A stretch of DNA of 64,000 nt from Gnetum montanum (taxonomy: Eukaryota > Plantae > Gnetophyta): contig MNCI01000651.1 in assembly GCA_015680685.1 (NCBI GenBank), positions 1,350,603 through 1,414,602 of the forward strand. Direction: 5' to 3'. This document shows positions 14,951 through 45,303 of this stretch, one piece after another (position 1 is the first letter of the stretch; each line of letters begins with the position of its first letter). Position numbers and translations under genes: made by a program. The notes under the pieces were generated by a model. That model was not told the origin of the DNA and ran no database searches. It saw only the letters and a program-made list of their open reading frames with translations.

Positions 14951-16204
14951 CTGCCACAAAAACCAGAAATTCAAAAGTTTGCCCCACTAGCAATAAACTT
15001 AGCTATCCAGATATTGTTTACAGTACTTTGCAACATAACAGATAGATGAAATACACTTATCAGGAACCTCCTTATAATAATATATCCAAGCATATAAGTA
15101 TGAAACGACAAAAATTGTTACATGTTAACCAACTGCAACTAAAAAATAGTTGGATTATAATAATTTCTTTTGAATCCAAAGAATAGCACTCCCTTTCACT
15201 GTTGTCATAACATTTCTGCTCCCCTGTGCAACCATGAAATATTTGCACTTTCAGTTTAAAATATTCTAATTTTTGACTGCTCTAATTTTTATTGTTCCTC
15301 TTTCTTAATTGGACTAACAAGAACATCAACCTTCATATTTTTCACCCACCCCCATTATTAAATAAAGCCAAGGAAACTTCTAGCCTCCCAGCTCATGAAT
15401 ATTATGTGCAAGTATTTTGAAACCACTTTTCATGTGAACTTTCACAGTACATGGGCTGTCTCTGGCAATTTTGATATACAGGATTTGAACTCTATAAATA
15501 TAGGTGCCACGTCCTTAGCATGTAAGCAAGGACCGTTCAGTTATAATTTCATTCGCACTCTTCTCATTGAACATGTTTGCAATTTCCTCCCCTGTTGTGC
15601 ACAATGTTAATTCTTGCGGTCTTTTTTTCAAGTTCTCACTCAGCAAAATGTGTTCACTCGTAGCTTAAGATTTTTTCAGCTACATTTGAGACTCTTTTGG
15701 CATCCTTGCTTATGGCTCAAAGATTCAATTTTCAAGTTCAAATTGGCTCCAATATTCAAGTGTTTACCTCAACAAGCACGAATGTAGATGATATCTTTGT
15801 TCACATCTCTACTCGTCTACTTATTTTACATGCATTTGATTGTCGTCGTGCTTTTTATCGTTATATGTACTGTTTTATTGGTTTGAGAATATCATAAGAA
15901 CTAAAGTTGTGATCTTCTTCTTACTTCCAATTATGTTCCTTTGTGTATCGTAGCTGGCAAACACCAACAAGTTTCCTAGGCCTCGGTGCCAACTACACAT
16001 TAAACCCAATTGTAACAAGATCAGAGTTAGGTGTTTCACTTGGTTATAAGGTCAGTTATTTAAATTTAATTTTTTTTGGCATATAGGTGACAAAAAACCT
16101 AGTACACTTGTTCATTTCATTTTATTTTATTTTTTGAGAAACCTTAGTAGATAGCTTATTTAAGCTTACAGTTGTAAACACCGGAGAAGGTTGGGTAACA
16201 CATC

Positions 16205-16292
16205 ATTGTTAGCCTAGTAGGAAGATTCTTAATCTAGAAGCTCCAAGTTATGGGTTCAATTCTTAGACACAATGCTGAGTTATAAAGTTTTA
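16205..16292 (+). mobile_element. Degenerate tRNA-derived SINE related to 1925-2025
   Basis: TGTTAGCCTAGTAGG (A-box-like; TGTTAGCCTAGT shared with the first copy) and GGGTTCAATTC (B-box-like) at similar spacing. Confidence 0.55.
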
Positions 16293-16595
16293 ATTTGACT
16301 ATAAACTAGCTTAGTTATATATTTATAATATATATTTATAATTTGGCCAAGAGAATCTTTAAAAAACTGAGTTGAATTTTAGTTCCTCTACTATATTGAA
16401 TATTATCCAAGTCACAATTTACTAGATTCAAAGTATTCCACAATAACTTTGGTCACATCACTATGATTGTATGATGAGAAGATAAATAATTCCATGTTTG
16501 GTACTAAATCTTGTGCTGCAAAATATTTCTAAATTCTCATGGTGTTGTTTTCCATGCATGCTCCCCTTGCCCTTCCCAATTTCATACTTGTGCAT

Positions 16596-17564
16596 TGCCA
16601 TACAAAGATGGAACAAGGGGGCTCCACCTCAATAGACCCCAACAGGACCCATTTCCCAACTTCCAAGCAAATCTAGCTTAGAAAACAAAAACAACACAAT
16701 GAAGTGGAGAAAATCCCCCTTATATTAAGAAAACTCTCAAAGTACAGAGAAAATACATTCAAGATGAAGAGCCAAACTCAACTCACAAGTCTCTCAAGGA
16801 TCTTAGAGGCCACACATGTCCCTTCTCAATCCCCAATTGCTCACCATGGAGTCAAAGCTCAAGACAAGATACTTATAAGAGATTCTCTCAACCTCTCTCA
16901 AGTGCTCTCCCTTGCCTCTCACTCAATTTCCTTACACAAGTTCTCTTCTTGCACAAGCTCTCCTTCCTCAAAAGCTCTCTCTCTTTCTCTTGGGTTAGGT
17001 CTCTTGGTGATACCAACAATGGTGATATACATCATTATTTATAGACAACCAAAAGACAAGAAACCTAGAAACCTTTCCTCAACTCACTTTGAAGTTCTTC
17101 AAATGTTTCCCCAATCTTCTCAACTTCTCCCCGGTTGTTTCCATCCTTTTCCATCTTGTTTTGGTTGTTTCCTATATTGTGATGGGTGTGTGATGGGTGT
17201 TTTTAGAAGTTTCCCCGGCCGTACAGATCATCTCTAACCTTCAGAAGATATCTTCTATGTTAGCCCAACTCTCGGGGTAGATGTCTTCTGTCATTGCAAG
17301 ATGTCTACTCCAACGTCAAGACATCTTGTGCAAGATGCCTCCTGCCTAGGGGAGAAGTCTCCCGTAAGACATCTTCTATACAGACAACGTCTCACCTAAG
17401 ACGTCACCCAAACTACAAGATGTCTCCTCTAATTTCTAGATGTCTCCTTCACATCTAGGTCTCAGCCAAAACATCTCCTAGCCTTCCAAGATGTCTTCTT
17501 CAAGCCTGAAACCTGCAAAACACACATGTAAGGCAAAACAAGGGGATCAGGAGAGGTCCTTACA
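16596..17564 (-). mobile_element. Solo-LTR-like repeat (family shared with 38985-39320 and 57701-58553)
   Basis: Shared blocks GACCCATT, GAGCCAA.CTC.ACTC, GGAG...CAAGACAAG...ATAAGAGATTC.CT.AACCTCTC; minus strand begins TGTAAGGACC at 17564. No TSD found. Confidence 0.65.
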
Positions 17565-18299
17565 CCAAAAGACATAAATATAGAAGCCACAAATTCACTT
17601 GAAGCAAATATGTTAGGGTTGTTACCAATAGGCTTTCCCTGAAATGTTATGGATGAAATATTATTTAGCATTACCAATCTATAACCGGTAGTTAGCCTCT
17701 TAGCCAAATCAATGAGGTATGAGGTATCTTTGGGAGAGAACTAGTGGGGCAAAGCATATCTGAGAAAAGAAGGCTACATAACTACACATCTATGAGAGAA
17801 GAAAACTTTTAGTCTTCTATTACCGAAACTGAAATCTTCCATATTTTCTATGGTTGAAATTCCTGGTTTGGTTACACCTTGATTGTTGTAATTTACTGAA
17901 AGCCAATTAATGATTTTGCATATCAATACCTCTTGTTATGCCTTTGCTTAATTTCTTGCAAAAACCTGGTGTCATTTTGGGGATTTAAACATTGTGTGAG
18001 ATATGTGTGGCTCTTAGGATTTATTTAATGAGGTTCCACACAGAGTGTGTAGCAAAAACAACAATTTTGGCAGCAGAACTTAAGAAAAGATGATGCAAAT
18101 TGATTGCAATGAATATAAAGGGCTAGAAGAGATGGAAATTAAACAACTAACAAAGAAATTAGGGTAGCACCATGGTTAAGCCAAAAAGGTAGAAAGATAA
18201 ATGGTAGGTTGGAATGACACTTTTCCATGGGTTTTGATCTTGATGCTTGTTGCAGTATTTATGAGAGTGCCTTGTTGCAATTACGTCTACAATTTAGAA

Positions 18300-18650
18300 A
18301 TGATTAGTGAATTTATCTATAACTTCATGATTATGATGGATTTGAGTTATGTCAATGACCATATCCTCATAATGTGTAGAATTCAGTGCTAATTTATGGA
18401 TTTACCTATGATTTCATGATTGTGATGATTTGAGTGGTCTTGATAACTACGTACTTATGATTTAGAAGATTTGCTCCTGGTCTGTAGAACTATCTATAAT
18501 TTCATAATTGTGATGGATTTAAGTGCCATAGATTATCATGTGTTCATGATTTGTAATATTTGGTGCTCATTAGTATATCTATTTAGGGTTTCATAATTGT
18601 GATAAATATCAGCAGTGTTGATGTGCTCATGACTTTTATGATGAATAGTG
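18300..18650. repeat. Degenerate tandem repeat, about 88 bp x 4
   Basis: TTCAT(G/A)ATT(A/G)TGAT recurs at about 18325, 18413, 18501 and 18590. Confidence 0.75.
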
Positions 18651-18859
18651 CTTTTTATAGCATTGGTTTTAAGTTGTGTTATGCATTGTTTGAGTGGTTT
18701 AAGAATTATTTGATTAGTGCTAGCTAAAAAACAGAAATGTGATGCAGGAGGTAGAAGTTTGAATTCCTACAAATTCATCACTAGTTTAGAATCTAAAATG
18801 AGTTGGTGACTAGTTAAATGACCTATGATTCTTGTCTATAATTGAATACCATTATCATC

Positions 18860-20636
18860 ATCATTGCCCGGTCTAGCTGGCGTTGTCACTGTGCCTCCTC
18901 CTCCTGTTCTTACTCGTGTTGGGCTCTTTCAACCACCTCGTGCTTTGTGTGAGCGGTCTCCTCCTACAGCAGCTCGTCCCTCACTTGGGCACGGATCTCG
19001 TCCACCAGACGGGCCCAGGCTGCATCCGCCAGAAGTGTTTGTTGCCTTATTCTCTCCTGCTCCCTTTCACAGAACTAGGTTTCCATCTCAGCCCAAGCTT
19101 GCGTGAGAGCTTCCTCCCATTTTGCCTCCCACTCTCGGTGCTCAACGTTGTGTGCCGCAGCTGCGGCCTCCTGTGCCACTTGCTGTAACGCCTCGTCCCT
19201 ACTTTTGTTGCGCCCCAAGGTTTCAGGCGGCACCGCCTCCGATTTCACCCTGGGGTTTGGGGGCCTCCATCCTCAATGTCTACGTCTTCTCCTCGTATAT
19301 GTAACTGCTGGCTGGGTCTACAGACTCTCCCGGGTGGCCGAAGATGTTGGGTCAGACAAGTGGCCTCCCCGCAAGGGGGCACTCTGCAGCCCTAATGGGT
19401 GTTGACCACCCACCCCCCCCCCCCCCCCCCCCNTCACTACTCCCTACCACAAGGCTAGAATGAGCCCGGAGCGGCAGCCTCGCCTCTACTATTGCAAGGT
19501 CACCAGAAAAAACCATGGCAGGTTAACCCTAAGTCTCATTTTAAGGCATTTGAGGAAGGCAAAGTGGATGCCTTGGAGTTTAGACCCGTTGCCAGACTGG
19601 ACAAAAAATCTGTCCACCAGATCCGCTGCTTGGGCCCAGATTCGGGGCAAGGAGGATTTGGGAACTTGTCTACTCTGTGTGTGTGGAACCAGCCCATTGA
19701 AGAAAATTTCTACGTCCTATAGCCCTCGTGCAAATGTCAAAATGACTTCGCCACCGGCCTGGGCCCCCAGACACCTGGCAATCGAAGCCTCAGTGACGAT
19801 GACCTCTACACCCCGAAAGTAGGTTTGGTCATTGTGCCAATTAGTGAAAAAAGCATCATCTAAAAGGTCCGGGTCACCAACTAGCCGTTGTAGGGCGCCA
19901 CTCCAGCCACACTACTCCACCATCAGCCACAACTCCTCATCTACTTGGAAAACAGCGTAGTTAGGCTCATACATCGACGTGACTCCCATCGCTACCTCAA
20001 TCTCTTTCCACGTAGTTACGGCCTAGGAAACCATGAGTTTGGANNNNNNNNNNNNNNNNNNNNNNNNNNNNNNNNNNNNNNNNNNNNNNNNNNNNNNNNA
20101 AGTCTGTGTTGCTGGAAAATTGTGTGATTTCTCGTCTTCCACACTACCCATAAAAGTAGCATGGCCCGAGAGTCGCCTATGAGATGCATTGGGGGGGCCA
20201 CACTTGAAGAACGCCATGTGGCACGCATGTAGGCACATTCGGAAATGAAGTGCTGCACAGTCTTGGGCATGGCACTACATAGAGGACAGGTGTCATCTAG
20301 GATGAGGCCTCGTCTACGTAAGAGCGCCCTAACAGGCAACGCGTCATTTCGAATTAACCACAAGAACACTTTAATTTTCTCGGGCAGCCACCCCTTCTAG
20401 ATCTGCCGCCAACCTAGCACCGAAGGGTACATGGCTACCATCAAGTGGCATGGCTCAAGCACCAACCACCCTTGTGCCTGCATTTCGCGCGCATGGCCAT
20501 AGAGCATCTGCTAGGGCTTCGAGTCTTGCGCCCCCGCCTCCCATCTTCTGTATTTTGCATTCATTATCCGGATCCACTAGGCCAGCTCCCTAAGTTGGCT
20601 CGTGAACCGGAGCAACAGGCACTGTTGTCCCATTGT
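18860..20636 (-). mobile_element. Extended-ORF2 LINE family, truncated copy 'F' (zf-RVT + extension)
   Basis: FLWLIRNDALPVR...CPLC...QHFISEC...WVVWKTRNHTIF, then AMGV...GW...FFTNWHNDQTYFRGVEVIVTEASIA, HFAFLKCLKMRLRVNLPWFFL...SGLILALW and a coiled-coil. CpG-rich. Confidence 0.9.
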
Positions 20637-20860
20637 CAATGTTTGTTGCTAACAAAATAAAATATTATTTTACTATTGAATAGATTTGAAATTATCTTTT
20701 TAAATGCTTCTTGCAACCAATGTAGCCAACTGTTTGGTTGAACAAATTTGTTGATGAACATCATGATATATTTTTTTTTATTGCTTGAGAAAATCAAAAT
20801 TTTTATTTTTAAATCAGAAAAATTCAAATATGTACACTGTATCAAAGAAATCTTGCATAG

Positions 20861-23800
20861 GTGGAAAAATGAGCACGAACAGGAACGAGAGTGAAGTGAG
20901 GGTGATTCTGGTGCAAAGGGTGAGGATGGGGTAGGTGTGGGCAGAGTGGGTAACGCAGGTGGGGATCATGGTGCTGCAGGTGCTACAGGAGCGGGGCAGG
21001 AGTCAACAGCGGACTCTACTTCAGGGGCAGCGGGAGGTGAGGCATCAGGTGTGGGATGTGTTGGTGGCGGTTTGAGGTTTGGGGGTCCTAGCAGGGCTCC
21101 TCCTCCTTGGTGCCCCAGGACTAGAGGTATCGAAGCATGCATTTGGAGGGAAGGTTCCATGCAATTGCAAGTCAAGGCCATTCCGAGTCAGGTGCTACGG
21201 ACCATGGAATTAAGTCTTATCGGAAAGTGTCTTGGCCAGCACTAGCCCTAAGCTGGATTTGGTCAAGAAGTGGGTGGCAGTGCAATGGTATTTTTGTCTT
21301 GTCATGGTTTGCAATCTCCCAGTTGATTTGCTATTGTTTATCTTCAAAACTATGTCAGATCAGGATAAAGTTCTTCTGGGGGGCCCTCGTTTTTCGGTGC
21401 CAAGGGATTGGCCCTCATCCACTGGTGCCCTAGTGCACATCGAGATCCGAATTTGTTTTCTAGGATGCCAGTGTGGATCCAAGTTTCTGGGATCCAGTGG
21501 GAGATGTGGACACCTGCCTTCCTACGGGCGATGGCAAGTCTCTTTGGAGAGTTCATTACATTTGATAGATCCATGGCATCCTTGGATAGAATGGGGTAGG
21601 GGGTTGGCCTCCCTTTCCTATTGGCTTTTTGAGACTATCGATACATCCATGTGGAGCATCACCATTTGGTTCCACCAAATAGGAATGTGGCTCACAAACT
21701 TTTATGTTGCACAGCAATGGGAGGAGTAGCTGAGGGAGCTATAGAGGATTGCTTTGTTAATCTTGGATTGGGGGAAGTGGATTCTAGTCGGGGACTTCAA
21801 TCAAAGCTTGTACCCATGGGATAAGTCTAATGAGGGAACCTTGGAGCCTCTTGGGGCATAGTCATTCCTACAATTTCTAGAAGCTGATGGCCTAGTGGAC
21901 ATGGACATCAAGGGTTGCCAATTCACATGGTGCAATTAAAGAAAAGGTAAGGACACAGTCATGACAAAGATTGACAAGATTTGGGTGGGCTTGGTCCTAT
22001 TGATGGCCCCCGGGTGACTATTTTGGGGAAGGAGTAGGTGGCCTCTAACCACAAGTCGTTGTTGTGCCAAGTAGGTCCCCTAGTGCACACGAGCTAACAC
22101 CGTTCCAATTTAAATGATTTTGGTTAGCTAAGCCTTGATTTAGATTGTTGGTGGAGAAAATTTGGAAGGACTAACCCTCCCCCACTAATGCTAGGGATTT
22201 TCTTAAGCAAGGGCTCACTTTGCTGAAATAGAGCATTAGGGCATTGAAGTTGGAGGATAAATTTTCCTTTAGGTCCTAGTGTGGGTTGTTGCTAGAGCAC
22301 TTAGAGGTGATTCAAGCAACACAGGAGTGGAGATAGGACCGTGACAATAACGAGGGGGCAGTGCTTGCGGAACTCCAAAATCTAGATGTTGAGGAGGAAA
22401 CCTATTGAAGGCAACAAGGGCATGCGCGCTAGCACCTAGAGGAGGATAGGAATACTCATTTTTTCTTCGCTAATGCCAATTCGGTGCAGGTTTCCAAATA
22501 GATTCATAGAATTAATGTTGCAAGTGCTACAGTGGAGGGGGAACATGAAGTTGCCTATGCACTAATGGCTTATTGGTCGGGTATTTGGCAACAGAAGGAG
22601 ATTGTGCCTCTCTCTATTGATATTGGGCGAATCCTAAATGAAGCTGATAATCGACAGTTGTTAGCCCCGTTTAACCGGGAAGAATTAGTGGAGGGTCTTG
22701 CTTCTATGAAAGGGGGGAGGGCACCTAGTCCTAGTTGGCCTCTAGAATTTTCCCGAGCTTTCATTGATGTTCTGGGGGATAATTTATTGGATGCCTTTAA
22801 CACCATGTTGCATTGGAGGCAGGTCTGGCGGGAGATCAATTGCTCTCAATTGGTGCTTATCCCCAAGATGGCTAATCCAATGACTCCCGCTCATTTCTAG
22901 CTGATTGGGATGTGCAACACTCTGCTTCACCTATTTACAAAAATGCTGAGGGCTCGGATGGGGCCCATGATGCCACGTTTAATTGGGCAGCAATAGGCCA
23001 AATTCGTCAAGGGTAGGTTCATTCAAGACAAGATCATTCTAGTGTAGGAAGTGATGCACTCGTGGAAAGCAACCAAATACCCATGTGCCTCAAACTTGAT
23101 ATTACCAAAGCATATGACACAATGTCTTGGAGTGCCCTCAAGGATATAATGCTACGAAAAGGTTTCCACCCGAACTTTGTGGATCTTTGCATACATATTC
23201 AAATGTTGGGGGCCTTCTCACTAGATTTGGAGGGGCAGCTTTGGGGGTCCTCCTCCCCTGGCAGAGGGTTACATCAGGGGGATCCCCTTTCATGGTATCT
23301 ATTTATCATTGTCATGGACACAATGCAGGCCTATTGCACGCTGGAGGGTGTGAGGTCTAGATATTGGAGGTGTCAGTTGCCTGGTTGAACATTATGTTGA
23401 TGATACCATTTTGTTTTCTTAGGCAGCGATGTCTCAAACATTGGCGATCAATAGGATGCTGCAATGTATGGCTAAAGAGACCGGATTGGAGATCAATCGG
23501 GGTAAGTCAGTGGTTCATCTGCGAAATACATATGCCAAGATTCAAGGTCGGATTGTGTATATCTTGGGGATCTTACCAAGATCCATTAAAGACACTTATC
23601 TTGGGTTACCTCTGTATGATTGCCATTGGCAGCATGTGTGGGGTAGTCTCCTTCGGCAGCTGCAATATAAGATTGGTTATTGGATGGCTTGGTTCTTAAC
23701 TCCAAATGGGAGGTCCCTATTGGCTACATCGGCTCTTTTGGATATTACTCGTACATGGCTTTGGCTGCTTCTCCCCCGACAAACATCATACAAAAAGTTG

Positions 23801-26052
23801 ATCAACTAATTGGGAATTTCACGTGGTTGTGGGTAAAAGGGATGATCGATTGCATCTAGTTGGGTGGGATACAATGGCTAACCCTAAAAATGTCAAGGGC
23901 TTGGGATCCTCCGATTCCAAGATGTCATTGCAATGGGGTACCTGGGGCTTCCTAATCAGCTACTTCAGCATGACTATAGTCCAACTAGATGGATTACTCT
24001 TATGAACAATAAATATCAACAATGGGAGGCCATTGCGGGTGATTCTCATATCTGGCGGGCATTATGCACACCTGCGAGGGAGATGATGGTGTTGGGGCTT
24101 TTGGGTATGCCACCAAAGCAACTAGTCAAAGCTAAATATCTGGAGGTTAGGGGATGGCAGGGGTTATGGAAGGGCCAACTCCCCAGAAAAATGAAAATGT
24201 TTATATGGCTTGTCAATCATTCTACTATCCCTGTGCGACATGAATTACAATGGCAAGGGGTTACTGTTGATCCCATGTGTCCCTTTTGCAAATTGTGCAC
24301 ATTATTTTCCAATACTCATTTTCACGAAGAGTTTGGCAAACAACAAACATCCAACCGGCAATTGTGTTTGACAATGATTCCCAGGCTATTGTGATCCTAT
24401 GGGTGCTCTAGAGAATGCAGAACTACAGAATTTTTAGGGGGATCTTGCCACCACCGCTAGCACAAGTTGCTACGGTTGGAGTGCGGCTTTGGTGGGAGGC
24501 GCATTTGGCAATGGGGGTGACTCCCACCTACAAGCCATCTTGTACAGAGTACCGGGAGAACCCGATTCTCTAGAATATGGTTTCCATGGTGGGGTGGACA
24601 TATGTGCTGGCTCTGCTCAGGGGGGACCCTAACCTAGAAGATGGGCACTTTTATACCAATTGGCAAGGGGATAGGACACACTTTAGGAGGGTGCGCATTG
24701 AGCTTACAGAGGAGGCAATTGCGAACTACTTACACATGCTGACAAGGGGGGAGGAGGTGCCACTTCAGGGGTGGGGGCTGTCAGACACTTAGGATTTCTT
24801 TGTGGGGCTGGTGCCTAAGACCAGGAGTGGTCAGGTCCTAAAGGCGATGCTGGACCCTCTGTGGTAGGATGTGGTAGTTCTAGTCAATAGGTTCTTTGTG
24901 CACTCCGACAACACCTGGAAGTTGCTGGAAGTGCACTTCGGTTTCATGCAAAGCCTCCAAAAGGGGTATACGGTTAATCTACCTCATTTTTTCCTAGCGA
25001 CGTTGCAACAACAAAAGAGGGGTACACATTCGGGCCTTATTTTAGCTCTATGGCAAGTGGCTTAGGGGAAGGTTCAACTAGAACCAACGACTTCTCAAGT
25101 TCAGGCAAAGTATGGCCATCAACGGCTACGTTGCGTGGACCGAACGGTAGAGTCAAAGGACTCCGATGACCAGGGGTATTGGTGGATCTGCATGCTAGGG
25201 AAGGTTTTGGAGGGATTCCATCAAGGGTTCCAACTCAATCCCCGAAACAACAAAGTGGGAATAAGCCAATTGAGGTAGGGTCTAGGACTGTAGGGAGTCG
25301 GGACCTAGTTGAAGTAGCAACGCTGCATGTGCTGGAGGCTGACCTGCAGTAGCAAATCCAGGAGGAAGCATGCCAACGAGGCCCAAGCGAGGGCGGATCA
25401 AGAATGCAAGGAATAGGAAGAGAGAGAGGTGGCCTAGATTCAATAATAGCTAGATCAGGTGCATGAGAGCGGAGCACGAACCTGGATGAAAGAGTGACGA
25501 TGCCCCTATGTGATAATGAATATTGGTCGTCACCTACCCTAGGGAACCCTAAGGAAGCATATCAGACAGAGGGGGAAGAAGCTGCACCCAAACAACATAG
25601 GGGATGAAGCAGAATGCACTAGGAAAGCCAAAGCCTTTAAGGATTTCCAGCATGCAACAACTTTTGTCAACACAAAGCAGTACAAGGCTATTCTGGATGC
25701 TATTCACAGTCAAGAGTAGGTTATATGCCGCTGTACACACCTGCCATGCCATATATAGGTCATGACCTTGGGCTTTGGGTTTTGTTGGTTTCTGGTAGTC
25801 CTGTCTCTTTGTTTTGTTGGGTCTTTTGACTAGTGAATTAGTATTGGGGGGTCCACAAGGGTGACTCACCAATTTTGATTTTTTGATGTTGGGCAGTTGG
25901 TAGGTGGGGTCTAGGTTGACCTTGCCTTTTGTGATGGGGGCTTTTCTTTCTAGGAGTGGAGGGGAGAGACCTCCCCTCATTTTTGGGGCTGTACAAATCT
26001 CACGTAATTTTCTTTTTACGATTAATCTAACCCGAATACTTTTCAGAAAAAG
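20861..26052 (+). mobile_element. Extended-ORF2 LINE family, copy 'A' with both ends and a TSD (internal deletion between ORF1 and the endonuclease)
   Basis: Perfect 14-bp TSD GAAATCTTGCATAG at 20847-20860 and 26053-26066. ORF1 DUF4283-like (LIGK, GGP, PVWIQV), endonuclease (WILVGDFN, FTW), RT (LKLDITKAYD, LHQGDPLS, YLGLPL), zf-RVT, extension about 24500-25760, 3'UTR and A-rich end. Confidence 0.95.
24391..25760 (+). pseudogene. C-terminal extension of LINE ORF2 in copy A (accessory-ORF-like domain, coiled-coil, Cys/His tail); decayed
   Basis: Frame from 24391: VILWVL*RMQNYRIFRG...AMGVTPTY...VGWTYVL...FYTNWQGDRTHFRRVRIELTEEAIANYL...HFGFMQSLQKGYTVNLPHFFL...SGLILALW; later, after frameshifts, RCPYV...LHP...FKDFQHATTF...LDAIHSQE*VICRCTHLP. 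Homologous translations in five other copies. Confidence 0.85.
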
Positions 26053-27599
26053 GAAATCTTGCATAGAATGTTTACAGCAATGCTATTTGATTGTGATGAC
26101 TATCTTTTTTCTTAGAAAATCAGCAATTGGTTGAGAGCACCATCTGAATATAGTGTTTTTGTGCCAATTAGACATGATTCATTTTACTAACCTTTTGTTG
26201 CTGTTGAAATTCTAAAAGATCAGAAATTACGGTTGAGGAATATTAGAATTTATTCTAACTTGATTAGAAAATCAAAATACATCTGTCCGTCTAACATAAG
26301 CAAAATCAAAAGAAAAGTGGTATGCTATCTTTAATAGCAGCTAAAGCACATATGATATTACATGTACTCAGTATTTGAAAATGCTATCAAAAAATTTGTT
26401 AACATTATTAATTATGATTTGTTGATGTCTGTTGTTGTCATGACAACAGCTTGGGTGCTTGAATGTTTATTGTTTCTTATAGTATCTGAATGGGTCAATT
26501 AATGCGATTTCCCTCTCTATTGTTATTCTAATATTTTAAAATGTGTTATGGAAGCATGAAAAATGATTACAAGGGATAAGCAAATGGACATGAAGGGACA
26601 ACACAGAACTTCCTTCTTGTTTCCATGACAAAGTGATGATGTGGTAAAATATTTATGTTTTTTTCATGGCCTTGTGATTAGCTTTGATTCCTCTATTAGA
26701 GTTTCAATAATTTGATTTGTGAATTATTGTTCTGCATGATTATTGTCCTGACTGGCCAGTTCTTTGTTTAAACAAGTTTAGTAAGCCACACTGTCTAATT
26801 TCTAAGTTTCCATTTTTTATGAACAATGAATATTATATAGTTGGTAAAAATATTGTGAATAAACGTGGAGATAGTGTCATAGTTGCAATAATTTTGTTGT
26901 ATTTCGTTTTGCAATTTATCCAGCTTATGAATAAAATGTTTTCCAACATTTTGACTCTCCATATAACTGATTATCTAGCTTGCAGTTCACAAGTCACAAG
27001 TTTGATCCTGAGGAAAATTCTGAAACAAGTCCCAATCTAGAGGCATGGTAGGGCTACGGCATTGGGTAGACAATTGGCCATAAGGTAACCAGCATCAAAT
27101 TCTTTACCTAGCTTAACAGTTAACACGTTATGATGGGATAAAGGCACCATACTAATAGTGATGATATGTCTGATTATGTTTTGATATGTATAATTTAGAA
27201 TTGTTGAGGCAGATTGATTGAGTTGATTTGTCTGTTGCTTATCTAGAAGGCTATGAACATGATTACAAGTTTAGTTGTTTTCACATTTGTATTGCAGCTT
27301 AGGTGCATAGCATCTATTGAGAAATGTCAACACTCATATTGGCATTTACTTCTAGCTAGATCCTTGGGTCGTTGTTTGCATTATATAATTCTCTATGTTT
27401 ATGACCTACTTCGTGTGCTTAATTTATTGTTACCAATGCTAGACCATAGATAAAAATGCAGACAGGATAATGGATTGCCTTTTCAGGTAAAAGATTTCAA
27501 ATTGCAGATTGCTTGGACTTGCAACCAAAATCATGTGGAATCATATAAGTTCTTCATTTAGCTCAATCTTCTGTACACGGGAATTCATCTGAAGGTGAC

Positions 27600-30500
27600 C
27601 ACCTAATGACTGTACATAGTGAGGAGCAACAGGCGCAACAACAACAATGGCAGGAGCAGCAGCAACAGGCACAGCAACAGCAGGAGCAACAACAGAAGCA
27701 GCAGCAGCAACAGCAGGAGCAACAACCGGCGCAGCAACCGCTACTGCTGGGGATGGCCCCAATGGGTTGGGGGCTAAGAAACCCGGTGGCGCCATCGAGG
27801 CCCACTCCCGCAGTGACCACACCCTGCGGCTGCGAGTCCACCACCCCCCCATCGGAGGGCGTCCGCAGTATGGAGAGGAGCCTCATTGGCCGTTTCATCT
27901 CCCGAGGGGCCCGCCCACGGCTGGACCTCATCCACCGGTGGGTGAAGGAACAGTGGAAGTGGGTGATGTCGATGTTCGGAGCCTTTCTGAGGACCTGCTC
28001 CTCTTTATTCTCCCTTCCCTGCAGGCCAGGGATTCTATGTTGCTCGGTGGCCCGTGGTTCTACGGGGCTCAGGGGCTCGCCTTGACCCCATGGCATCCTG
28101 GGGCCCACCGAGAGGCCAACTTGTTTACCCGGGCCCCGGTCTGGGTGCGGGTGGCCGGCATTCCTTGGGAACTCTGGAACCTCGAGTTCCTAACGGAGGT
28201 TGCAGGGTTTTTTGGTGACTTCATTGCCCGTTTCTGCATCTGGCGCAGTCTGTCGGAGACTAACCTCATCCGGGCGGTAGTGCTGGAACTCCCTGGGGAA
28301 GAGGAAACCCTCCAAGTCACTTTCAAGAACCTGGGAGTGGATCCTGGCCCGACACGTGGTACGGACAGCCACGCAGGCAGGCCTGACGGTTGCAGGTGTT
28401 GCGGGAAACCCGAACACCTAGAAGCACAATGTCGATTCCGCAAGACGTGGCCGAGAGCCCCGGCCCGACGAAGGGGGCAACTGGGTCACCATGGGACGCA
28501 AAGGACAACTGCGTCCCCCGTCTGACCAACCCCCCTCCCGAAGTAACCCCACGACCAACCCCCCCTGCNNNNNNNNNNNNNNNNNNNNNNNNNNNNNNNN
28601 NNNNNNNNNNNNNNNNNNNNNNNNNNNNNNNNNNNNNNNNNNNNNNNNNNNNNNNNNNNNNNNNNNNNNNNNNNNNNNNNNNNNNNNNNNNNNNNNNNNN
28701 NNNNNNNNNNNNNNNNNNNNNNNNNNNNNNNNNNNNNNNNNNNNNNNNNNNNNNNNNNNNNNNNNNNNNNNNNNNNNNNNNNNNNNNNNNNNNNNNNNNN
28801 NNNNNNNNNNNNNNNNNNNNNNNNNNNNNNNNNNNNNNNNNNNNNNNNNNNNNNNNNNACAACCAACCCACACACCCCACGCGGCCTCCCCCCGGTCACC
28901 CACAACCCAGCCGAACACTACAGAACCGGGACCCGAGCTCCCCCCTTTGGGGGAATAGGTTAATGTGGTTCGGGGGAGCACCCGAACCTGACAACGCCAA
29001 GCGCAAGAGTCCCCCGCCAAGGAGGCTGAGTGCAGCCCAGTGGTGTGGGACGACGAGGGCCGCTCAGGCCGACCGACTGAGACCAGATCCAGGAGCAAAC
29101 AAGCCCAACGGAATATCGACTTGGGGCAGCAACAGACCCTTTGGGAGGTCTACCAACGCCACACCTCTGATCATACATGAAGGTTTTCAGCTAGAATTGC
29201 AAGGGACAGGGTACCCCCTATAAAAGAAATACCCTACGTCGTATTGTTAAAGAAGAAGACTGTGACATCGTTTGCCTCCAGGAGACCAAGCTGCAAGCAA
29301 TGGAATCATACCTTCTCCAACGGGAAGGTTGGGTTACCAAAATGCACCCCTGCCAAGGCAGGGCCGAGGGCCTTGCCATTCTGGCACATTACGCCATGCG
29401 ATTGGTAGACACTTCACAATGGGCCATCNNNNNNNNNNNNNNNNNNNNNNNNNNNNNNNNNNNNNNNNNNNNNNNNNNNNNNNNNNNNNNNNNNNNNNNN
29501 NNNNNNNNNNNNNNNNNNNNNNNNNNNNNNNNNNNNNNNNNNNNNNNNNNNNNNNNNNNNNNNNNNTCGGGTGCACAGGCTTTCCTGGACTTCTTGGCAA
29601 CTCACTCCCTGGTAGACTTACCCATTGAGAACTGCCAGTTCACCTGGAGCAACCGACGAAAAGGTTCGGACCATATCCTCTCCCGCATCGATCGGGTCTG
29701 TGTCAGCTCCAACCTCCTCCTCCGCTCCACCGTGCACATGACGGGGCAAGAAAGAGTCGCCTCCGATCACCGCTCGCTGGTCTGTTCGCTCGGACCGGAT
29801 AAGCCCCAGGCCCCACACCCTTTCCGTTTCGAGGCCACATGGCTCTCCAAACCATGGTTACGACCTTTGGTTGAGGATATCTAGGCTGATTATCGACCTA
29901 ATCGTGTTGACCCCCAAAATTTCCTCAAAGAGGCCTTGCTTCATCTAAAGTGGGCCATTCAGGCCCTCCCAATGGAGGAGAAATTTTCCTTCAGGACTGG
30001 TCAAAGGGTGGTTCAGGATCAGCTCAGTCAAATCCAGGCCCAACAGGAGATTGGGGAGGACTTGCATCTGGAGGAGCTGTGTCTCCTACGTCAACTCTAG
30101 ATCCTTGACCTGAAGGAGGAAACGTATTGGCGGTAGCGCTCCCGGGTCAGATGGCTTCGAGAAGGGGACAGACAAACAAAATTCTTCTTTGCCATGGCCA
30201 AAACTCGAGGTGAGAGCCAAGCCCGTTGCTTGCGAACCCAGACAGGCGAAGTTATCGACGACCCACAGGGGATCACCAATGAGCTGTCACAATACTGGGG
30301 GAAAATTTGGACCAAGCAGCCTACTCAACCCATCTCTGTCCACGTGGAGAAGGTGCTACATGAAGGAGACAATAGGCGGCTGATGGCCCCCTTCTCTTGG
30401 TTGGAACTAACTACCACTATCAACAGCATGCCGAGAGGGAAAGCGCCTGGACCTGATGGATGGTCTCTTGAATTCTTCAAGAGTTTTATGGATACTGTGG

Positions 30501-31905
30501 GGCCCAATATCCTGGATGTGTTCAACCTCATGTTAGCCAGGAGACAAGTGCGACGGGAAATCAATTACTCTCCACCCAAAGCACTTCCGTCCCATTGGAG
30601 TTTGCAACGTCCTTATTAGGATCTTCTCCAAGCTCCTAGTCAACCGGCTTGGGCCTCTTCTGCCCAAGCTGGTGGGAATCAATCAGGCTAGTTTTGTGCA
30701 GGGTAGGACCCTTCAGGATCAGGTTCTCCTCATGCAGGAGGTGTTGCACTCCCTCCGGACTACAGGCTTCCCCAGCCTATGTCTCAAGCTTGATATAGCT
30801 AAGGCATATGATATGCTCAATTGGGAAGCTTTGCAAGCCATTATGCATCGAAAAGGGTTTGACCAAAGTTTCATCCAACTGTGTATACACATCCAATCCT
30901 CCGTCCGTTTCTCGTTCGATGTGGGGGGGGCGGCTGTGGAGCTTCTCATCCCCTGGTAGGGGTTTGAGAGAGGGCGACCCACTTTCGCCCCTGCTCTTCA
31001 TCATTGCTATGGACCTCATGCAACATTATTGCAGCATGTCCAAGGTGGAGGGCTTGGACATCGCTGGGGTGGCCTACCGGGCCAAACACTACGCAGATGA
31101 CACCATGCTGCTCAGCCAAGCAGCGGCCCCACAAGCACGCTGTATTAACACAACCCTGACCCGACTAGCAGAGGAGTTGGGATTAGAAATTAACCACACC
31201 AAATCTGCGGCGCATTTCATTAATGTTGATGCGCAAGTAAAAGGCAAGGTGGTGCAAATCCTAGACATACAGCCTGGGACAACTAAAGACACATACCTGG
31301 GCATCCCGCTATTCCAATGGGGCCGAAACAATTCGTGGGGGGCACTCATGGCAAAGGTTGAAAGGCGGATGAACCACTGGGCCAATCGCTTCCCAACTCG
31401 CAAGGGTCGTCTCCTCGTGGCAACCGGGATTCTCATGGCCGTCACACGATTTGTGGCGGCCGTTGCCGTTCCCCCAAACGCCATCATCCAACAAATTAAC
31501 AAGATGGTACGAAGCTTNGCGGGGGGGTTGGGCATTACATCTTTCAAGGATGAAATCATGTTAGGGCAGCAACGGCTCCTGCACCGCCTAATGCGCCTGC
31601 ACGGGGAGCCGAGTCAGTGGGCCTGCATCATCAATGGTACGTACACGCAGTGGGAGGCCGAGACGCGTGCCTCACGGCCCTAGCAGACGATCTGCCAGCA
31701 CGCATGAATGATGCTAACCCAAGGTTGGCTGGACCTCGAGCCGCGCGCCCTGCTATTAGCGAAATATCCGCCGGAGGACGACTAGTAGCGGATCTGGTGC
31801 GAGCGGCTCCCCGAAAAAATAAAAAAAATCTTTTTATGGCTAGTACGATCTGATGTGCTCCCTGTACGTGCCATTCTGCACAGGCACGGCATCATGCAGG
31901 ACGAT
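27600..31905 (+). mobile_element. Same LINE family, CpG-rich copy 'C' with ORF1 and ORF2, truncated at zf-RVT
   Basis: ORF1 from about 27647 (A/T/G-rich N-terminus, GGPWFYG...PVWVRV, knuckle CRCCGKPEHLEAQC); ORF2 from ATG 29177 (MKVFS*NC, FTWSN, SRIDR, SDH, KAPGPDG, LKLDIAKAYD, LREGDPLSP, HYADD, YLGIP). Two N gaps. Confidence 0.95.
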
Positions 31906-33711
31906 TTTGAAAGATTTTTGCAATAGTCAAATACGTCTATTAACAAAAACATAAAAAAGCATACAGTAGATTCAGACGAGCAAGGTAAGGCTTCTTGTTT
32001 TAATGACTCTTGTTTCTATTGTTGGAAAGCTTCATGTGGAACATGGCATTCATTAAGGGACATAAGCATGAGCAAGGTACACACAGACTACATCCACAAC
32101 TATGGTAGGCTAACAGTAGCAATGCTAAGTACTTTCCTTGAGTTCCAACCAAAGGCTTTGACATTGCTGGCAATCATCGTCATACTCGTATTGCATTGCT
32201 TATGAATGCCTAAAATGCCAAATAAGATAAACAAACTATCACAAGTGTCAGGTTCCAATAGCCTTCAATGTTAAACTACTACCCATGTAGATAAAAATGG
32301 TGCCAAAACCACAGATGCACCATTCGAAGCACCACTACCATCATGGATGTTCATGTTTCATTAAATTTGGCTAGTTTTGTCAGATGAAACCAACTACAGG
32401 AAGACATAGATGCAAATAGACCATAACAACAGAGTGCAAAACTATAAAATCATGCACATTTGATTCCAAACTCACGATTTTAAAATGCACATTTTTCTAT
32501 GGATCACAATGCACTCAATATGGCAATTCTGATCTGATTCAATGCATTTTCTCTGGATCGCAATCTGGAATCATCTAGATCACAATTCTGATCCACATAT
32601 TTAATCTATGTGATAGACAAATTGCAAGCTAAACTTATGATGGTTGATCAAGTGTTTGAAAAAGGATTACTCGTGCATTTTTGGGTAAGATTTTGGGGGC
32701 TTCAAGTGTTAGATCTTGTCCCCTAGGCTAGAGCTTCCAATTGTCCTAAATAGCATAAGAGCATGTTAAGTTTTTATTGTTCAATTTGCAAAGCTTGTGC
32801 AGTTCGTGGATTACTCATCAATTGGGGTTCAAGATTGTTTCCAATAAATGATGATTTGTGCAACTTTTGTTTTACTCGGTTATTCAAGAGGTGGTTGTGC
32901 AAAGTTTGTGTAGCTTTCAATTTACTCATCACTCAGGGGTTGGATTTGATCAGTGCCAGTTTAGCCATGGTTTTAGAAATTAGTTTTTCATGATCACCAC
33001 AAGGATAAGTAAAAAGGTGAATTCTTCTTAAAGGCTATGTATTAGATGAATTTCAAATCATGTGGTCAATGGTTATGATTTATGGTTACAGTAAACAGTT
33101 ATTAACATGTCTTGACATTTTGCTTGTGTCCCAAACTATGATTTCTATAACAACATTGCAATTATTGCTGCATATTGGACTACCGTAACGGCATGAGTTA
33201 TCAGTTAGTTTCATCTTGGCTTTTGACATATTTGATTCTAGAATTATTAGTTTCAGCTTGACTTTGACATATGTGATTCTAACCTGGAATGGTTTAATTG
33301 TTGGACCATTGTTCATCTTGTAGTGCAAGGCTTAGTTTAAATGAAGGTCAAATATTGCTTTCCTTGCAAGACTATGACTCACCTCCCTTTATTTCACTTT
33401 TTAAGACGTGTAAGTGCATGGGATGTGCTAGGATGATGAAAGAGAGATGTGACTCAAAGGTCAAGTAAAGCATAGCTAGACGTAGACGTTGATCAATAGG
33501 AGTAACTTGCATTCTTGTAAATTTGAATCTGGTGTAGTCGAACTATTGATGTCACCTCATAATATGATTTGAAATACTGTAAAATAATGATAGATGAACA
33601 GTTAAGCTCCTATTTTGACTGTTACTGGTAATATCTTCGTTATTATTGTTCATTTAAAGTTTAATGATTTACATTATACCATTGTTAACAATTTTGGTGT
33701 TAATATGCCCT

Positions 33712-35340
33712 AATGGAGACTCCAAGGGGACCGCCATGCTCTAGACAATGTGGAAATTTAGAAATAACCTCATCTTTCAGGGTCAATGGCTCCTGCCACC
33801 AATTTCAGCTGCTGCTGCTAGAACATGGTTATGGCAGAAATCCTCGTGGAGCATGGGGCAAGCATAGTATTGTGAGCCGGTGGTGGGAGAGTTCTAGTAG
33901 GATGAAGAACTATGGCAATTGGTTACAAGGGTGGGGTGGGGCTGGATCATATTGAAGGGGTGCCTGATATTGCAGATGGCACCTTTTCAAGAATTGGGAA
34001 GGGGAGACAACAATATGCAGAGGAAGACAGATTCAGCTAATGAAGTCAACGATGGCAGTGGTGTTGGGGGTGCCATTAGGTGGGTGGGGGTGGGAAGGTG
34101 ATCCCATCGATACTTCACAGCTTTCAGTACGTGTCTGAATTCTTTGGGAGAGGGATCTCGAAGATAGTAACTGGGCATGTTCCCAAGTCTACACTACCAC
34201 GGATTTGGCAGGCAGCAGCAACTTTAATTGACAAATTTTTGGTGCAATCGAGTAGCTCGAATAGACTTGTAGGGGCTCACTTCGCCTTCCTTTAGTGCCT
34301 AAAATTTGGCATGCATGCAAACATCCGAAGATTCTTGCTAGAGTCCCTGATGAGGAAACAACCTAGTAGACATCTCGGTCTAGTTCTGGCCTTATGGTGG
34401 TCAGGGACACCGATCATTTTGAAGGAGCCGCAATCTGAGCCACAACGGGTGTATTATAAGAGGCACCTCCGTTACACTATTAATGGAGGACAGACAAGCG
34501 AGGGGGGGGAGGCAATTGAGGGAGGAAGCTAAGAGCAAAAAGTAAACCTTTACGAGGTGGCGCAAGGCAAGCAGGAGGCGATTATCATGATGACACACTG
34601 CGAGCTTGATGCCCTTGTACAAACAGCTAGGAGTGAAGTGGCGGGGACAGTGCATGAAGAGACAGAAGCAAAAGGAGAGGTGCAGTGGGATGCGCGTGTG
34701 TGGCAACTGATGACGCTAGCTGCATGCCAGAGGGCAAAGCTATAGAACCTACTCCATAGGAACAAAGCACAACAGGAAGAGACAAGCAACCAACTAATGG
34801 AAAGCATGATGAATGCACAAACTCCGACATAAGAGGAACAATAGGCACGGAGGCGACCAATGGATACCCAAGTCCATGAGCAAAATATGAACAAGGAAGG
34901 CCAGGATGTTTGCAGACAAACGCTGTAGGAGAAAGAGGAGCATAGGATAAATCTGCCAGGAAAGCCTAACAAAGTCACCACGCAAGAAAGCATACATTGG
35001 TGGAATCCCCACAAGGCATGATGGGTGTTGTTGTGTTTTGTCAGTTTTGTCACTTGTTTCTTTCACTTGCAGGGATGGAAAGAGCATGTTGAATTAGGTG
35101 ATTTCAAGTACAATATGGATAGCCTACCTGGGCCTTCATGGACATGGGGTTTTGTGTTTCAAGGGTGAGTCATTTTTTATAAGGGGTATGTGGGGGTGGC
35201 AACTATCGGGAATGGCAACGTCCCCCTAACTGGGGTCGGCTAGGGTAGCTGACAGGTGTTGTTTGGCTTCATGAGCTAAGCAACTTGTACATATCATTTT
35301 CTCTGGTTTGAATAAATCCCAATCACTTCTCGAAAAAAAG
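33712..35340 (+). mobile_element. Extended-ORF2 LINE family, 5'-truncated copy 'D'
   Basis: GDSKGTAML*TMWKFRNNLIFQG... runs in one frame to DEELWQLVTRVGW; later LIDKFLVQS...HFAFL*CLKFGMHANIRRFLL...LGLVLALW, coiled-coil, 3'UTR and A-tail at about 35333. Confidence 0.88.
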
Positions 35341-35899
35341 AATGTGACTTTTTAGTCAAGGCTTGTGGCTTGCATCCTCAAGCCACATGTGAGATCCAAA
35401 CAGGCTACCTATTGAGCTATACAAGCATTATGCAATTATTGAAATTACATTTGTCAAATAGATCCATAGGTAAAAATAGTTCCCATCTTGGTTTCAATTT
35501 GAATTTCACTAAAGAATAAACCATAGAACTTTAACACCCACTAGGGAACTACGAGTATTAGTACGTATTTGTAGTAGTGTAGGAACAGACCAAGTTTTTA
35601 CTCTACATTTCATGAGTTGAGATATTTGTTTGTGTCTTTTTAGGTGGGTTCTTTTGATATTTTATAGAAAAACAAGCTTGAAGGAGTGTTGGCGTGCAAT
35701 GGGCAATGCCATGGTTGAAGGCTAACTTTGAAGTGCTAAAAAGAATAACTGAAACATCTAAGAAAAGATATGACCCTAGCTTAGACAAGCTACTACATTT
35801 CAACAAGATCTAACCCTACCTTAGCACCCAACTCTAGGCTAGAAAGTATAAGAAAATGGTTGGATGTAAAATCTACTCCATGAGGAGCAATACAAACAT

Positions 35900-37831
35900 A
35901 GATGGAATCATATCATCACCACCTCTCTTTTCATACCACTAGGGAAACTTGACACTACTTCACCAACTATTGTTACCTGCAGTTAGACCATCTCTCAAAG
36001 GAAGCAACATTGGTTATCTCTGAGCAATGAGGCTTATACCCATTCACATTGGTTCATCCAAAGTTCTTGACCCTCATGCACTAATTTTGGGATGTGCTAT
36101 CTTCTTATCAAAGTTCACAAGTCAACCAAAAAACTTAGCAGTGGGATTGAATACCTAAGTCCAACTATTTCAACTCCTCCAATTCTAGTGCAGTCAATTT
36201 GTATGGACATTGCCTAGGAGAGGAAATTCCCAGTAACAATTCAATTTTGTGGTCCACCAACTGACACTCAAGTAACTCGCTTGGTAACTCCTTTGACATC
36301 AAGTCCTTATACCTCCCTAAAACTGCTTCAATTCTCCTATTCACCTAAGCCAAATCTTTACCTCCTCCTTCAACTTCTCTCAACACTGCAAAATACATCA
36401 TCTAAGTTGAGTCTCTGGCCACCTTCGTCATCATCATAGGGAACACAATTTAAAGATCCTAAGGTGTGCTATTCACTCCAAGTGCAAAAATCTTCATCAC
36501 ATAGGGTGAATTCTCATGCAAGATGTAAAGAAAAACAAGATGTGGAGCAACCAACACTTTAGCCTTCCTCAAAAAATCTTGTCCACGGATGACTTGGAAA
36601 GAAGGTATGTCCAACATTATCCCACCTGTACTGAAACCTTATTCACCATCCCAATACATTTGATTGGCTGAAACTTGGCTAACTTACAGGATGCCAAGGC
36701 CAGCTCAACCTACAAATTGAGATCACGAGTGATTTTCAACATCAAGTAATTGTGGTTGGCACATGTGTCAACCAAAGCATTCATTGCCTGCTTAGAAAAG
36801 TTTACTAGAACCATCTAAACTACATGCAAAGTGGTCCCCTGTTTCCCCCGCTCTCCTTGGACATTCTGTTCCACCACCACCAAACTCCTAGAGATCTGCT
36901 GAATTACATCCCAATTTCCTATCTCTTCTCTGTCCTTCCCCTCAATTACTTGTAATTAAGCTTGTGGTTGGGGTACCTAAGAGCATTCAACCTTTGATTG
37001 TCACTTTGTCCCCTTCCACCATTTTTTTGATTTGCATTTTATAGACAATCCTTAGCAATATGACTCCTTGAACATAGTTGGATGCCTAGGAGGATTATTC
37101 ATGGGTCCTCCAAAATGTGTTTGTTTGTCTACAAATATAAGAGCACAACATTTTCCATACCTGAGGTGAGAAGGTTGGCAACCTAGAGTAGTGGTAATGC
37201 ACATACCTTTTAAGCCTTTAAAATTCTTTCCTCCAAATCCTCCAAACTTTTTACTCCCTTGTTGTACCTCTACCCCATTATTATCTTATTTTGTTCCCCT
37301 ATGATCCACCGAACCTGCAACCACTTGAAGTGCTTCTCTATATTCTGTGATTTTTTGGGTTTTAATCTCCCAATGCACCCAAGGCTTTAGGCCATTCAAA
37401 AAGAGTCTGTATTTGTCTGCTTCATTGATAACAACCTGTAGATTATCAATAACATCCCTCTACTGCTCCATATGATTAATCAACACAAAGTTTTGGGCCA
37501 CTGTAAGTTCATGTTTGGTGTGTGAATTCAGTTATGACAGAAAAGGTACCTCCATCGGATCAACTATCTCTTGGATCATTCTCGCCTTCTCAACAATAAG
37601 CAAACACCAGAAGATTCCACCATCAACGTTCAACAGCTGACCCCACACTCCCACATCTTTTCAGCTAATTCATTGATTGCCTCTGCCCCATTTCTTCCAC
37701 TTCTATTGAAACATCTTCTATAATTAGTGCATCATCAAGAACAAGACCAAGATCTCCTCTCTTAACCTTCTTCATGCTGTCTATCACAAGTTACTATCTT
37801 CCACTAGAGCCAAAACCTGTCTTTGATACCA
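35900..37831 (-). mobile_element. Ty3/gypsy (chromovirus-like) PBS-gag-protease remnant
   Basis: PBS TGGTATCAAAG at 37831-37821; protease motif MNALVDTCANHNYL near 36785-36745; heavily decayed. Left boundary approximate. Confidence 0.7.
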
Positions 37832-37832
37832 T

Positions 37833-38930
37833 GTGCTAAAAGAAGCAACATCTAGTGCCATCCGAATCAAAGTTAAATCCAATAGAGCAGTTGTGGCCAG
37901 TATATGAAAAGCAGATGTTCATCATTGTGCATTGTCTTTGTACTTGGCAACACTATCTCCTAGGTGGCCCTATGGTAGTCAAAATAGACCATAGAACCAC
38001 AAGCTACCTTCTCACTCATCCAAAGTTAAAATCAAAGTAGGCCATATGGTTGACAAGAATTTGACCTTCAGTTTGTTTAATGGTCAAATGTGGTGGCATA
38101 TGCTTTCAACTGTTGACCTCAATGTGCTCAATGGAAGTTGTTGGACAGCCCACTGCTTCTTCAGTAGTGCCCAACTATGACCTCCGAAAGAAAATTCTTG
38201 AAGAATTGCATCATGATCAACATGCCCAAGAATTGTTGGTGCTCCTTTGAGGTGAAGAAACTTCAAATTCCAGTGAAGCAGATGACTTATTAATATTCAA
38301 AAATAATAATTTATGCACCTGATTGGGGTGGTTTGTGTTCAAAGATCATTGAAGAATATCAAAGCACACTTTGGGCTGGCCATCTAGGTCTGAAGAGAAC
38401 AATAGCCTTTGTGAAAAGAAACTTCTATAGGCCAAACTTGGGTGTGGGTATGGCAAACTTTATTAGAAATTGATTGGTGTGCTAGCTTCTATGGGTGACC
38501 ATTTATATGGATTTCATCTTTTGGCTTCCTACACTATGAGGCTTTTTCAGCATCCTTGTAGTTGCAGACAAGTTTTCCAATTATGCCATCTTCATTCTGT
38601 GTCCAACTCCTTGAACAACTAAAAATGTGATGGCTTTGTTCTTTGGCGATGTAATAAGATACTTTGGTATGCCTACAAGTATTGTGTCAGTCAAGGACTC
38701 TCATTTCACAAGGGCTTTTTGGCAAAGGTTGTTTGAGATGATGAGCACAAAGCCAAAAATGTTTTCAGGATATCATCCTTAGATAGATGGGTAGAGAAAG
38801 TAGGTGAATCATATTTTAGAGAAGTATTTGCAACATTTCATCCAGCTTTACCAAAGCAACTGGGTGGGGTTGTTACCTATGACATAATTTAGTTATAACA
38901 TTCAAAAATCCTCAGCTGTTGGAATTCAAA
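37833..38930 (+). mobile_element. Ty3/gypsy RNase H-integrase remnant
   Basis: ESKLNPIEQLWPVYEKQMFIIVHCLCTWQHYLLG..VVKIDH; STLWAGHLGLKRT; IYMDFI..LP, ILVVADKFS, GMPTSIVS..DSHFTRAFW, GYHP*IDG. Confidence 0.88.
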
Positions 38931-38984
38931 GTTGGTGAGTTCGTTCAAAGATAGATTACATAGGACAAATTAGACTGGTGCAAA

Positions 38985-39320
38985 GCCTACCTCAATAGAC
39001 CCATTCCACAAGTTTCCTAACCAATTTAAGCTTAGCAAAAAAGAACAACACATTTTATTAAGACAACTCTCAAAATGTAAAGAAATACATCAAGGTTCAA
39101 GAGCCAAGCTCTACTCAATTACTCACACTTGGAGCATAATCAAGACAAGATACTTATAAAAGATTCTCTCAACCTCTCTCAAATGCTCTCCCTTGCCTCT
39201 TACTCAAATGGACACAATGTCCTATTACAAGCTCTCCCTTACATGCACTCAACCTCTCTTGCACAAGCTCTCAAGAGACCTCTCAAATCTCTCACTTAAC
39301 TCAACCGCTAGCTCTTGCTC
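38985..39320 (-). mobile_element. LTR fragment of the 16596-17564 family
   Basis: Shares ACCTCAATAGACCC and CAAGACAAGATACTTATAA.AGATTCTCTCAACCTCTCTCAA.TGCTCTCCCTTGCCTCT with 16620-16930. Confidence 0.75.
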
Positions 39321-39652
39321 CATATGAATGGGTATTATATTAGCATTCTCTCAAACACAAGAAAAGTTTGATTGCACAATTTTGTACCTAGAATGATGTT
39401 GAGCTAGCTTCATGGCTCATAGAGAATGACCTGCCTTGAGCTATCACTTCTCAAAGATAGACCTAGTGGTTGGAAGATAGTGCTGCTCGGAAAAAAAAAG
39501 GTGGATGTAAAACAAGTTGGAGAAGACAAGTGGAATGAAGGATAGACCCCTTTTAAAGGGCAAAGAATCAATGTATTCATCCAACTTTGGAGTTTTGGGT
39601 GATTGCACATCCAAGCTAAAGTCCCAAAGATCCCTACTCATGCTAAGCTTCT

Positions 39653-45219: not shown

Positions 45220-45303
45220 GATAATTTGGAGAAAGCAACAATCACTGGAAAATTGATAGCCTAAAAATACATATTCAGGAAATATTCAGAACTCTCAACT
45301 CAC

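Follow-up and report, generated by a model that had tools for sequence, protein, structure and literature searches.

A plant L1-clade LINE of Gnetum montanum carrying a conserved accessory module behind its ORF2 core

To our knowledge, plant long interspersed nuclear elements (LINEs) have been thought to keep to a fixed two-gene plan, with ribonuclease H (RNase H) as the sole optional extra. In the available parts of PMC11288735 and PMC5203782, L1-clade LINEs of plants, such as Celine, have an open reading frame (ORF) 1 with DUF4283 and zf-CCHC and an ORF2 with an APE endonuclease, a reverse transcriptase (RT) and zf-RVT, with or without RNase H; the latter is described in the same portion of PMC5203782 as a captured ORF2 tail. 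A LINE family in a 64-kb stretch of the Gnetum montanum genome (contig MNCI01000651.1, positions 1,350,603 to 1,414,602, forward strand; hereafter the window) shares with these elements the ORF1 and ORF2 core, a poly(A) end and a 14-bp target-site duplication. It differs in what follows the core: rather than ending or passing into RNase H, the ORF2 frame adds approximately 420 to 480 amino acids (aa), comprising a domain related to Transposase_32/ATHILA followed by a basic linker, then a likely coiled coil and lastly a very probable J-domain. The element is a real and new variant of plant L1, and the family keeps this long-lived three-part accessory module in place of RNase H.

Self-comparison of the window resolved one LINE family in six pieces, designated A, B, C+D, F, E and G (Table 1). 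In agreement with the original prediction of an L1-type LINE, made from the DNA letters, Pfam analysis detected DUF4283 (E = 2.4e-17), Exo_endo_phos (3.5e-9) and RVT_1 (9.1e-10) in copy C and zf-RVT (E = 8.7e-14) in copy F, which gave the ORF2 order APE endonuclease, RT, zf-RVT; the CCHC knuckle of ORF1 was read directly in copies B and C. A-rich ends were present in A, B and D, and a target-site duplication in A only (one of the six copies searched; none was found for B). Judged by domain content, order and ends, the family is an old plant L1-clade LINE. Because they lie inside the target-site duplication and the A-rich end, the domain of copy A and the remainder of the module belong to the element. 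Compared with B, copy A has an internal deletion of approximately 1 kb between ORF1 and the endonuclease. Copies C and D are likely one element, D being its resumption after an AT-rich 1.8-kb stretch (31905-33711) that splits the zinc-finger region; no target-site duplication was found around this interruption. The 3' 2.3 kb of copy A was matched at 80% or more in 342 contigs of one DNA run, 236 of them below 90%, and so the module layout is that of a genome-wide family; near-identical pieces of copy A were also found in a DNA run of another species. Copies F (minus) and A (plus) stand head to head about 285 bases apart (20576-20861), yet come from diverged subfamilies, and a weak translated match to the RT region of copy B at 59313-59543 represents a more distant LINE remnant.

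A conserved coding domain had been predicted in the slot after the ORF2 tail of copies A, B, D and F, and it was recovered there: one degenerate pattern gave exactly four matches, in these copies, and none in 100 shuffles. Copy D has two frameshifts within the domain, and its FxNW segment, reported earlier as less clear, is present in another frame. A profile built solely from 26 relatives found in the databases matched the domain of copy A starting at 24511 (iE 1.3e-18). None of the window copies gave a Pfam hit to Transposase_32 (PF20167), and the best relative scored 25.4 bits against a cut-off of 45 bits; by way of the relatives, a full-length likeness to Transposase_32/ATHILA was obtained (profile positions 3-165 of 177). 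The relation to Transposase_32/ATHILA put forward in the original prediction is therefore very probable at the level of sequence. The domain is hosted here by a LINE and is not an extra ORF of a long terminal repeat (LTR) retrotransposon. Seven of the 26 relatives were named to organism, all of them gymnosperm (five Ginkgo, one Taxus and one Welwitschia), and copy A matched the Welwitschia protein best, at 37% over 90 aa. Gymnosperm proteins P0008-P0033 start with MGG and mostly have no Pfam match; long coils are present in some (P0013, P0032), and P0008 contains two copies of the domain. These MGG proteins look like an uncurated branch of Transposase_32.

Copies A and F aligned without a gap over 181 codons of the domain, with 112, 115 and 54 identities at codon positions 1, 2 and 3, respectively (Fisher p = 1.8e-10). 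In the C-terminal half of the domain the proportion of synonymous differences (pS) was 0.73-0.94 and that of nonsynonymous differences (pN) 0.24-0.41 over all six pairs, compared to 0.71-0.82 and 0.27-0.36 for the RT. The two shifted frames gave pN/pS of 1.2-1.3 and the antisense frames 0.6-1.3. The comparison between copies proposed earlier indicated purifying selection, although dN/dS is given without an exact value because synonymous sites were saturated. The domain was kept under protein selection for as long as the RT was.

In contrast to the original prediction, which ended the extension at 25120, the module continues through the linker and likely coiled coil into a further conserved end; over half of the extension consists of coiled coil and J-domain. 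The coiled coil was assigned from composition, as a stretch rich in E/Q/R/K/A, which D and F encode in the same frame as the domain. The end, 110 aa long, is conserved in A, B and G and broken in E; B and G read from the coil into it without a change of frame. When a five-row profile of this end was compared with the PDB, all 37 matches (to E 10) were J-domain proteins (best E 1.9e-4); single copies likewise matched J-domain proteins only, at E 0.35 or worse, and Pfam DnaJ (PF00226) was detected in one of the five rows, copy A (E 0.0024). These alignments make it highly likely that the module ends in a J-domain, which was constrained in turn (pN/pS 0.33 and 0.53). No J-domain was detected in copy D. 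Copy B has the HPD motif and copies A, E and G have HPN, each N representing one G-to-A change at a CHG site. Since the first base of the Asp codon always follows the Pro codon, and so lies in a CHG site, CHG decay suffices to explain HPN; it may instead be fixed in the family.

Decay of this kind was widespread. TAG accounted for 66 of the 77 in-frame stops present in the aligned sense blocks. The stops mostly stood opposite CAG, CAA or TGG in other copies, and their density was alike in core and extension. Copies A and B were depleted of CTG and enriched in CTA and CAA, which is a strong signature of CHG decay. The stop pattern fits decay of methylated CHG, and CHG methylation is high in gymnosperms according to the available part of PMC9364684.

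The junction between the ORF2 tail and the module was read in each copy. Copy A has a zinc-finger frameshift near 24290, where it is 16 nt shorter than B and F; from 24292 a single frame runs through the WKxRN motif and the ATG at 24511 to the domain end at 25053. Copy B, for which no unbroken frame had been claimed, keeps a single one from a point before zf-RVT (52746) to the middle of the domain (51739), and copy D does so from 33712 as far as the VGW motif. The unbroken frame that had been claimed for A and D was thus upheld in A through the domain end, and in D is interrupted by the frameshifts inside the domain. Between WKxRN and the ATG there was no stop in A and D and there were three TAGs in B; the junction of F has a 56-N gap and a single TAG. 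This TAG coincides with one of the three in B and precedes the ATG by 12 codons; A reads GTT and D GCT at this codon. Not every stop is thus private to a single copy, and a TAG in the domain core is likewise common to A and B (CAG in D). Junction pN/pS was 0.41 (A-B) and 0.61 (A-D).

Two open junctions, the fixed spacing, codon conservation past the B/F TAG and recurrent TAG decay favour fusion, and the module is probably translated as part of the ORF2 protein (ORF2p). ORF2 might instead stop at or near the B/F TAG, with reinitiation 12 codons further on at the ATG yielding a free protein that acts in trans like VANC. Such a third gene, which may coexist with the fusion, is unlikely. It would account for the ATG GG kept in all four copies in favourable surroundings (purine at -3, G at +4), for profile homology that starts at this ATG, for the TAG common to B and F and for the low model confidence before the Met. 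It would also suit the database relatives, which have Met at the matching place in 17 of 26 cases (at residue 1-3 in nine) and none of which has an L1 tail, RT or J motif. However, A and D have sense codons in place of the TAG and read openly from there to the ATG, and A, B and D have one and the same WKxRN-to-ATG distance, a multiple of three. Past the TAG, codons are conserved for a Trp and for other residues, and TAG, which decay produces repeatedly in this family, coincides between copies inside the domain as well. Whether fused or a third gene, the element seems to have acquired a complete accessory gene along with its start codon. It is highly improbable that the module is a functionless passenger, namely a fragment of an LTR element or host gene gained by nesting or 3' transduction. 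This notion could draw on copy E, which is without the domain, and on copy D, without the J-domain, but E is a deleted copy, since its zinc finger and half of its RT are lost too. Constraint equal to that of the RT between lineages with saturated synonymous sites, the preserved frame and spacing, the position within the target-site duplication and a pN/pS of 0.32-0.53 largely refute it. Least credible of all is a degenerate RNase H: although the module sits where some plant L1s carry one (PMC5203782, available part), neither Pfam nor PDB profiles matched RNase H (RVT_3), as the original prediction had held, the model is mostly helical with one hairpin, and the positive matches were to Transposase_32/ATHILA.

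That model, predicted for the domain of copy F and of low confidence ahead of the Met, had VANC21 of VANDAL21 (PDB 9lnk) as its sole structural match, over 165 residues with 10% identity and a modest Z. The domain is accordingly predicted, with better than even confidence, to have a VANC-like fold, and DNA or chromatin binding by this fold is putative. ORF2p acts in cis, so a fused module would arrive at a new insertion with the enzyme. Made with ORF2p and carried along to each new insertion, the VANC-like fold would bind DNA or chromatin of the element itself, the coiled coil would oligomerise, and the J-domain would bring Hsp70 onto silencing complexes, by which silencing would be held off. 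We place this combination, a fused module of about 420-480 aa in ORF2p that binds chromatin and recruits Hsp70 against host silencing, a little below an even chance, and regard an anti-silencing role as such as slightly more tentative. The accessory gene may have been captured from another plant transposon, perhaps an LTR element as in the original prediction, and the J-domain added later. Counter-silencing, a speculation in the original prediction, gains a structural lead in the VANC21 match and stays a model-based proposal. Chromatin J-proteins are familiar from DNAJ1/2 with SUVH1/3. In Arabidopsis, SILENZIO with MBD5/6 and HSP70 likewise has a J-domain that reaches methylated chromatin through a partner able to bind DNA (PMC8616336, available part), though SILENZIO, a host protein separate from its reader and not implied to be an orthologue, represses. 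Against the anti-silencing proposal, no enrichment of a cognate short motif was found in the six copies, which are decayed and from diverged subfamilies.

The main functional rival is a fused module for targeting and chaperoning, in which the particle of ORF2p and RNA would be tethered by the domain to one kind of chromatin, for instance that of gene introns, and would be folded or dismantled by Hsp70 that the J-domain recruits. An ORF2p fusion would act in cis at integration, no cognate motif array was seen, four copy segments lie within one 30-kb intron, and J-domains are general co-chaperones. We nevertheless consider targeting doubtful, as the sole structural match is a sequence-specific anti-silencing protein, insertion bias cannot be shown from one window, and LINE-rich introns are general in Gnetum (PMC9364684, available part).

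Table 1. Positions of the LINE copies, their parts and the host intron in the window.
Feature	Position	Strand	Basis or remark
Copy A, whole insertion	20861..26052	+	Target-site duplication on both sides, A-rich end, colinear with B
Copy A target-site duplication, 5' unit, 14 bp	20847..20860	+	14-mer has no other occurrence than that at 26053
Copy A ORF2 core, from endonuclease through RT and zinc finger to WxxWKxRNxxIF tail, with stops and frameshifts	21628..24438	+	tblastx blocks against B, C, F; Pfam on B, C, F counterparts
Copy A, 181-aa domain, very probably Transposase_32/ATHILA-related	24511..25053	+	From conserved ATG, in frame with ORF2 tail
Copy A, basic linker and shortened likely coiled-coil region	25054..25500	+	Deletions, local frame changes
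Copy A, very probable J-domain and short C-terminal tail	25507..25758	+	HPN at 25585-25593
Copy A 3' untranslated region (UTR; G/T-rich) and A-rich end	25759..26052	+	
Copy A target-site duplication, 3' unit	26053..26066	+	
Copy B, nearly full-length, with ORF1 (CCHC knuckle), ORF2, extension and poly(A)	50100..56900	-	5' end approximate
Copy B, domain very probably Transposase_32/ATHILA-related	51494..52050	-	One frameshift near 51750
Copy B, likely coiled coil	50730..50997	-	63% E/Q/R/K/A, in frame with J-domain
Copy B, very probable J-domain and tail	50419..50670	-	HPD at 50592-50584
Copy C: ORF1 (DUF4283), endonuclease, RT, zinc finger start	27600..31905	+	Pfam; colinear with A
Copy D: WKFRN tail, domain (33853-34397), linker, likely coiled coil, 3' UTR, poly(A)	33712..35340	+	
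Copy F, both ends truncated: zf-RVT, tail, N gap, domain (19989-19447), basic linker, likely coiled coil	18860..20576	-	Coil in same frame
Copy G, 3' end alone: likely coiled coil, probable J-domain, tail, UTR	46750..47560	-	HPN at 47194
Copy E: linker and RT part, internal deletion, probable J-domain remnant (8913-9178)	7350..9400	+	HPN at 9050
Host gene intron, 30,353 bases	14951..45303	-	GT donor 45303 and AG acceptor 14951, joined in frame

The intron belongs to a minus-strand host gene that shows motifs in five stretches at 46119-45331 and has an exon near 14950-14780; from these motifs, and not from a profile scan, we take the gene to be lipid phosphate phosphatase-like. LINE copies F, A, C and D fall within this 30.4-kb intron and together fill no less than 12.8 kb. 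Directly behind copy E is a Ty1/copia gag-pol piece (9606-11492, plus strand; Retrotran_gag_2, protease-like, integrase). The sequence at 9171-9481 is repeated at 13614-13924 and, at 87% identity, the two may be an LTR pair overlapping the 3' end of E. An 800-bp direct repeat (39653-40442 and 42578-43423, 82%) surrounds a 315-aa minus-strand frame (41322-42269) that had no Pfam match; together these may be an old LTR element. A dispersed short repeat of 200-350 bases, 77-82% alike, occurs at 16627-16966, 39053-39250 and 57714-58043.

Among the literature matches listed, none described a LINE that has a J-domain or a domain of the Transposase_32/ATHILA/VANC type. Such a LINE could be recorded in sources outside the search, namely Repbase, Dfam, Heitkam 2014, Smyshlyaev 2013, the paper on the VANC21 structure and one PMC5203782 supplement. 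A precedent for the capture is found in insect R1/TRAS LINEs, which carry a viral SF1 helicase at the ORF2 C-terminus, for which counter-silencing has been proposed; domain, donor and host differ, and the helicase acts on RNA (PMC4686597 and PMC6338049, available parts). For the domain itself, the closest systems are the Transposase_32 (PF20167)/ATHILA (PF03078) accessory ORFs in LTR retrotransposons of plants, for example the 3' accessory ORF of sunflower Athila 14, which share a domain of approximately 180 aa, a basic nuclear-signal-like segment, a coil behind it and a position 3' of the enzyme genes (PMC11728184 and PMC7264820, available parts). In contrast to these, the Gnetum domain is in a non-LTR element, in frame with ORF2 and joined to a J-domain, and belongs to a gymnosperm branch under the Pfam cut-off. 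VANC21 of the Mutator-like DNA transposon VANDAL21 is also a transposon-borne accessory domain with a coiled coil (PMC5735166, available part). Low identity and the modest Z set the LINE domain apart, and no motif arrays were found in the copies; VANC is a separate gene of a dicot DNA transposon, and the available part of the source mentions no J-domain for it. PMD, the domain of MAIN/MAIL1, is known fused to Mutator-like (MULE) transposases (PMC5418596, available part). It is conceivable, if rather unlikely, that this LINE carries its own VANC-type sequence-specific anti-silencing factor, joined to a J-domain that recruits Hsp70 and fused to the RT, and that Transposase_32, ATHILA, VANC and PMD/MAIN make up a single superfamily of DNA- or chromatin-binding domains that predates the flowering plants and has moved between LTR elements, Mutator transposons, LINEs and host genes. 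The finding is relevant to the view that MAIN-like host genes of dicots gave rise to VANC (PMC13547354). The module could help explain LINE persistence in a heavily CHG-methylated genome and, via a gymnosperm branch tied to the solved VANC21-DNA structure, offers a testable function for the uncharacterised Transposase_32/ATHILA domains. A DNA-binding fold and a J-domain in one transposon protein would mirror the host complexes of reader and J-protein.
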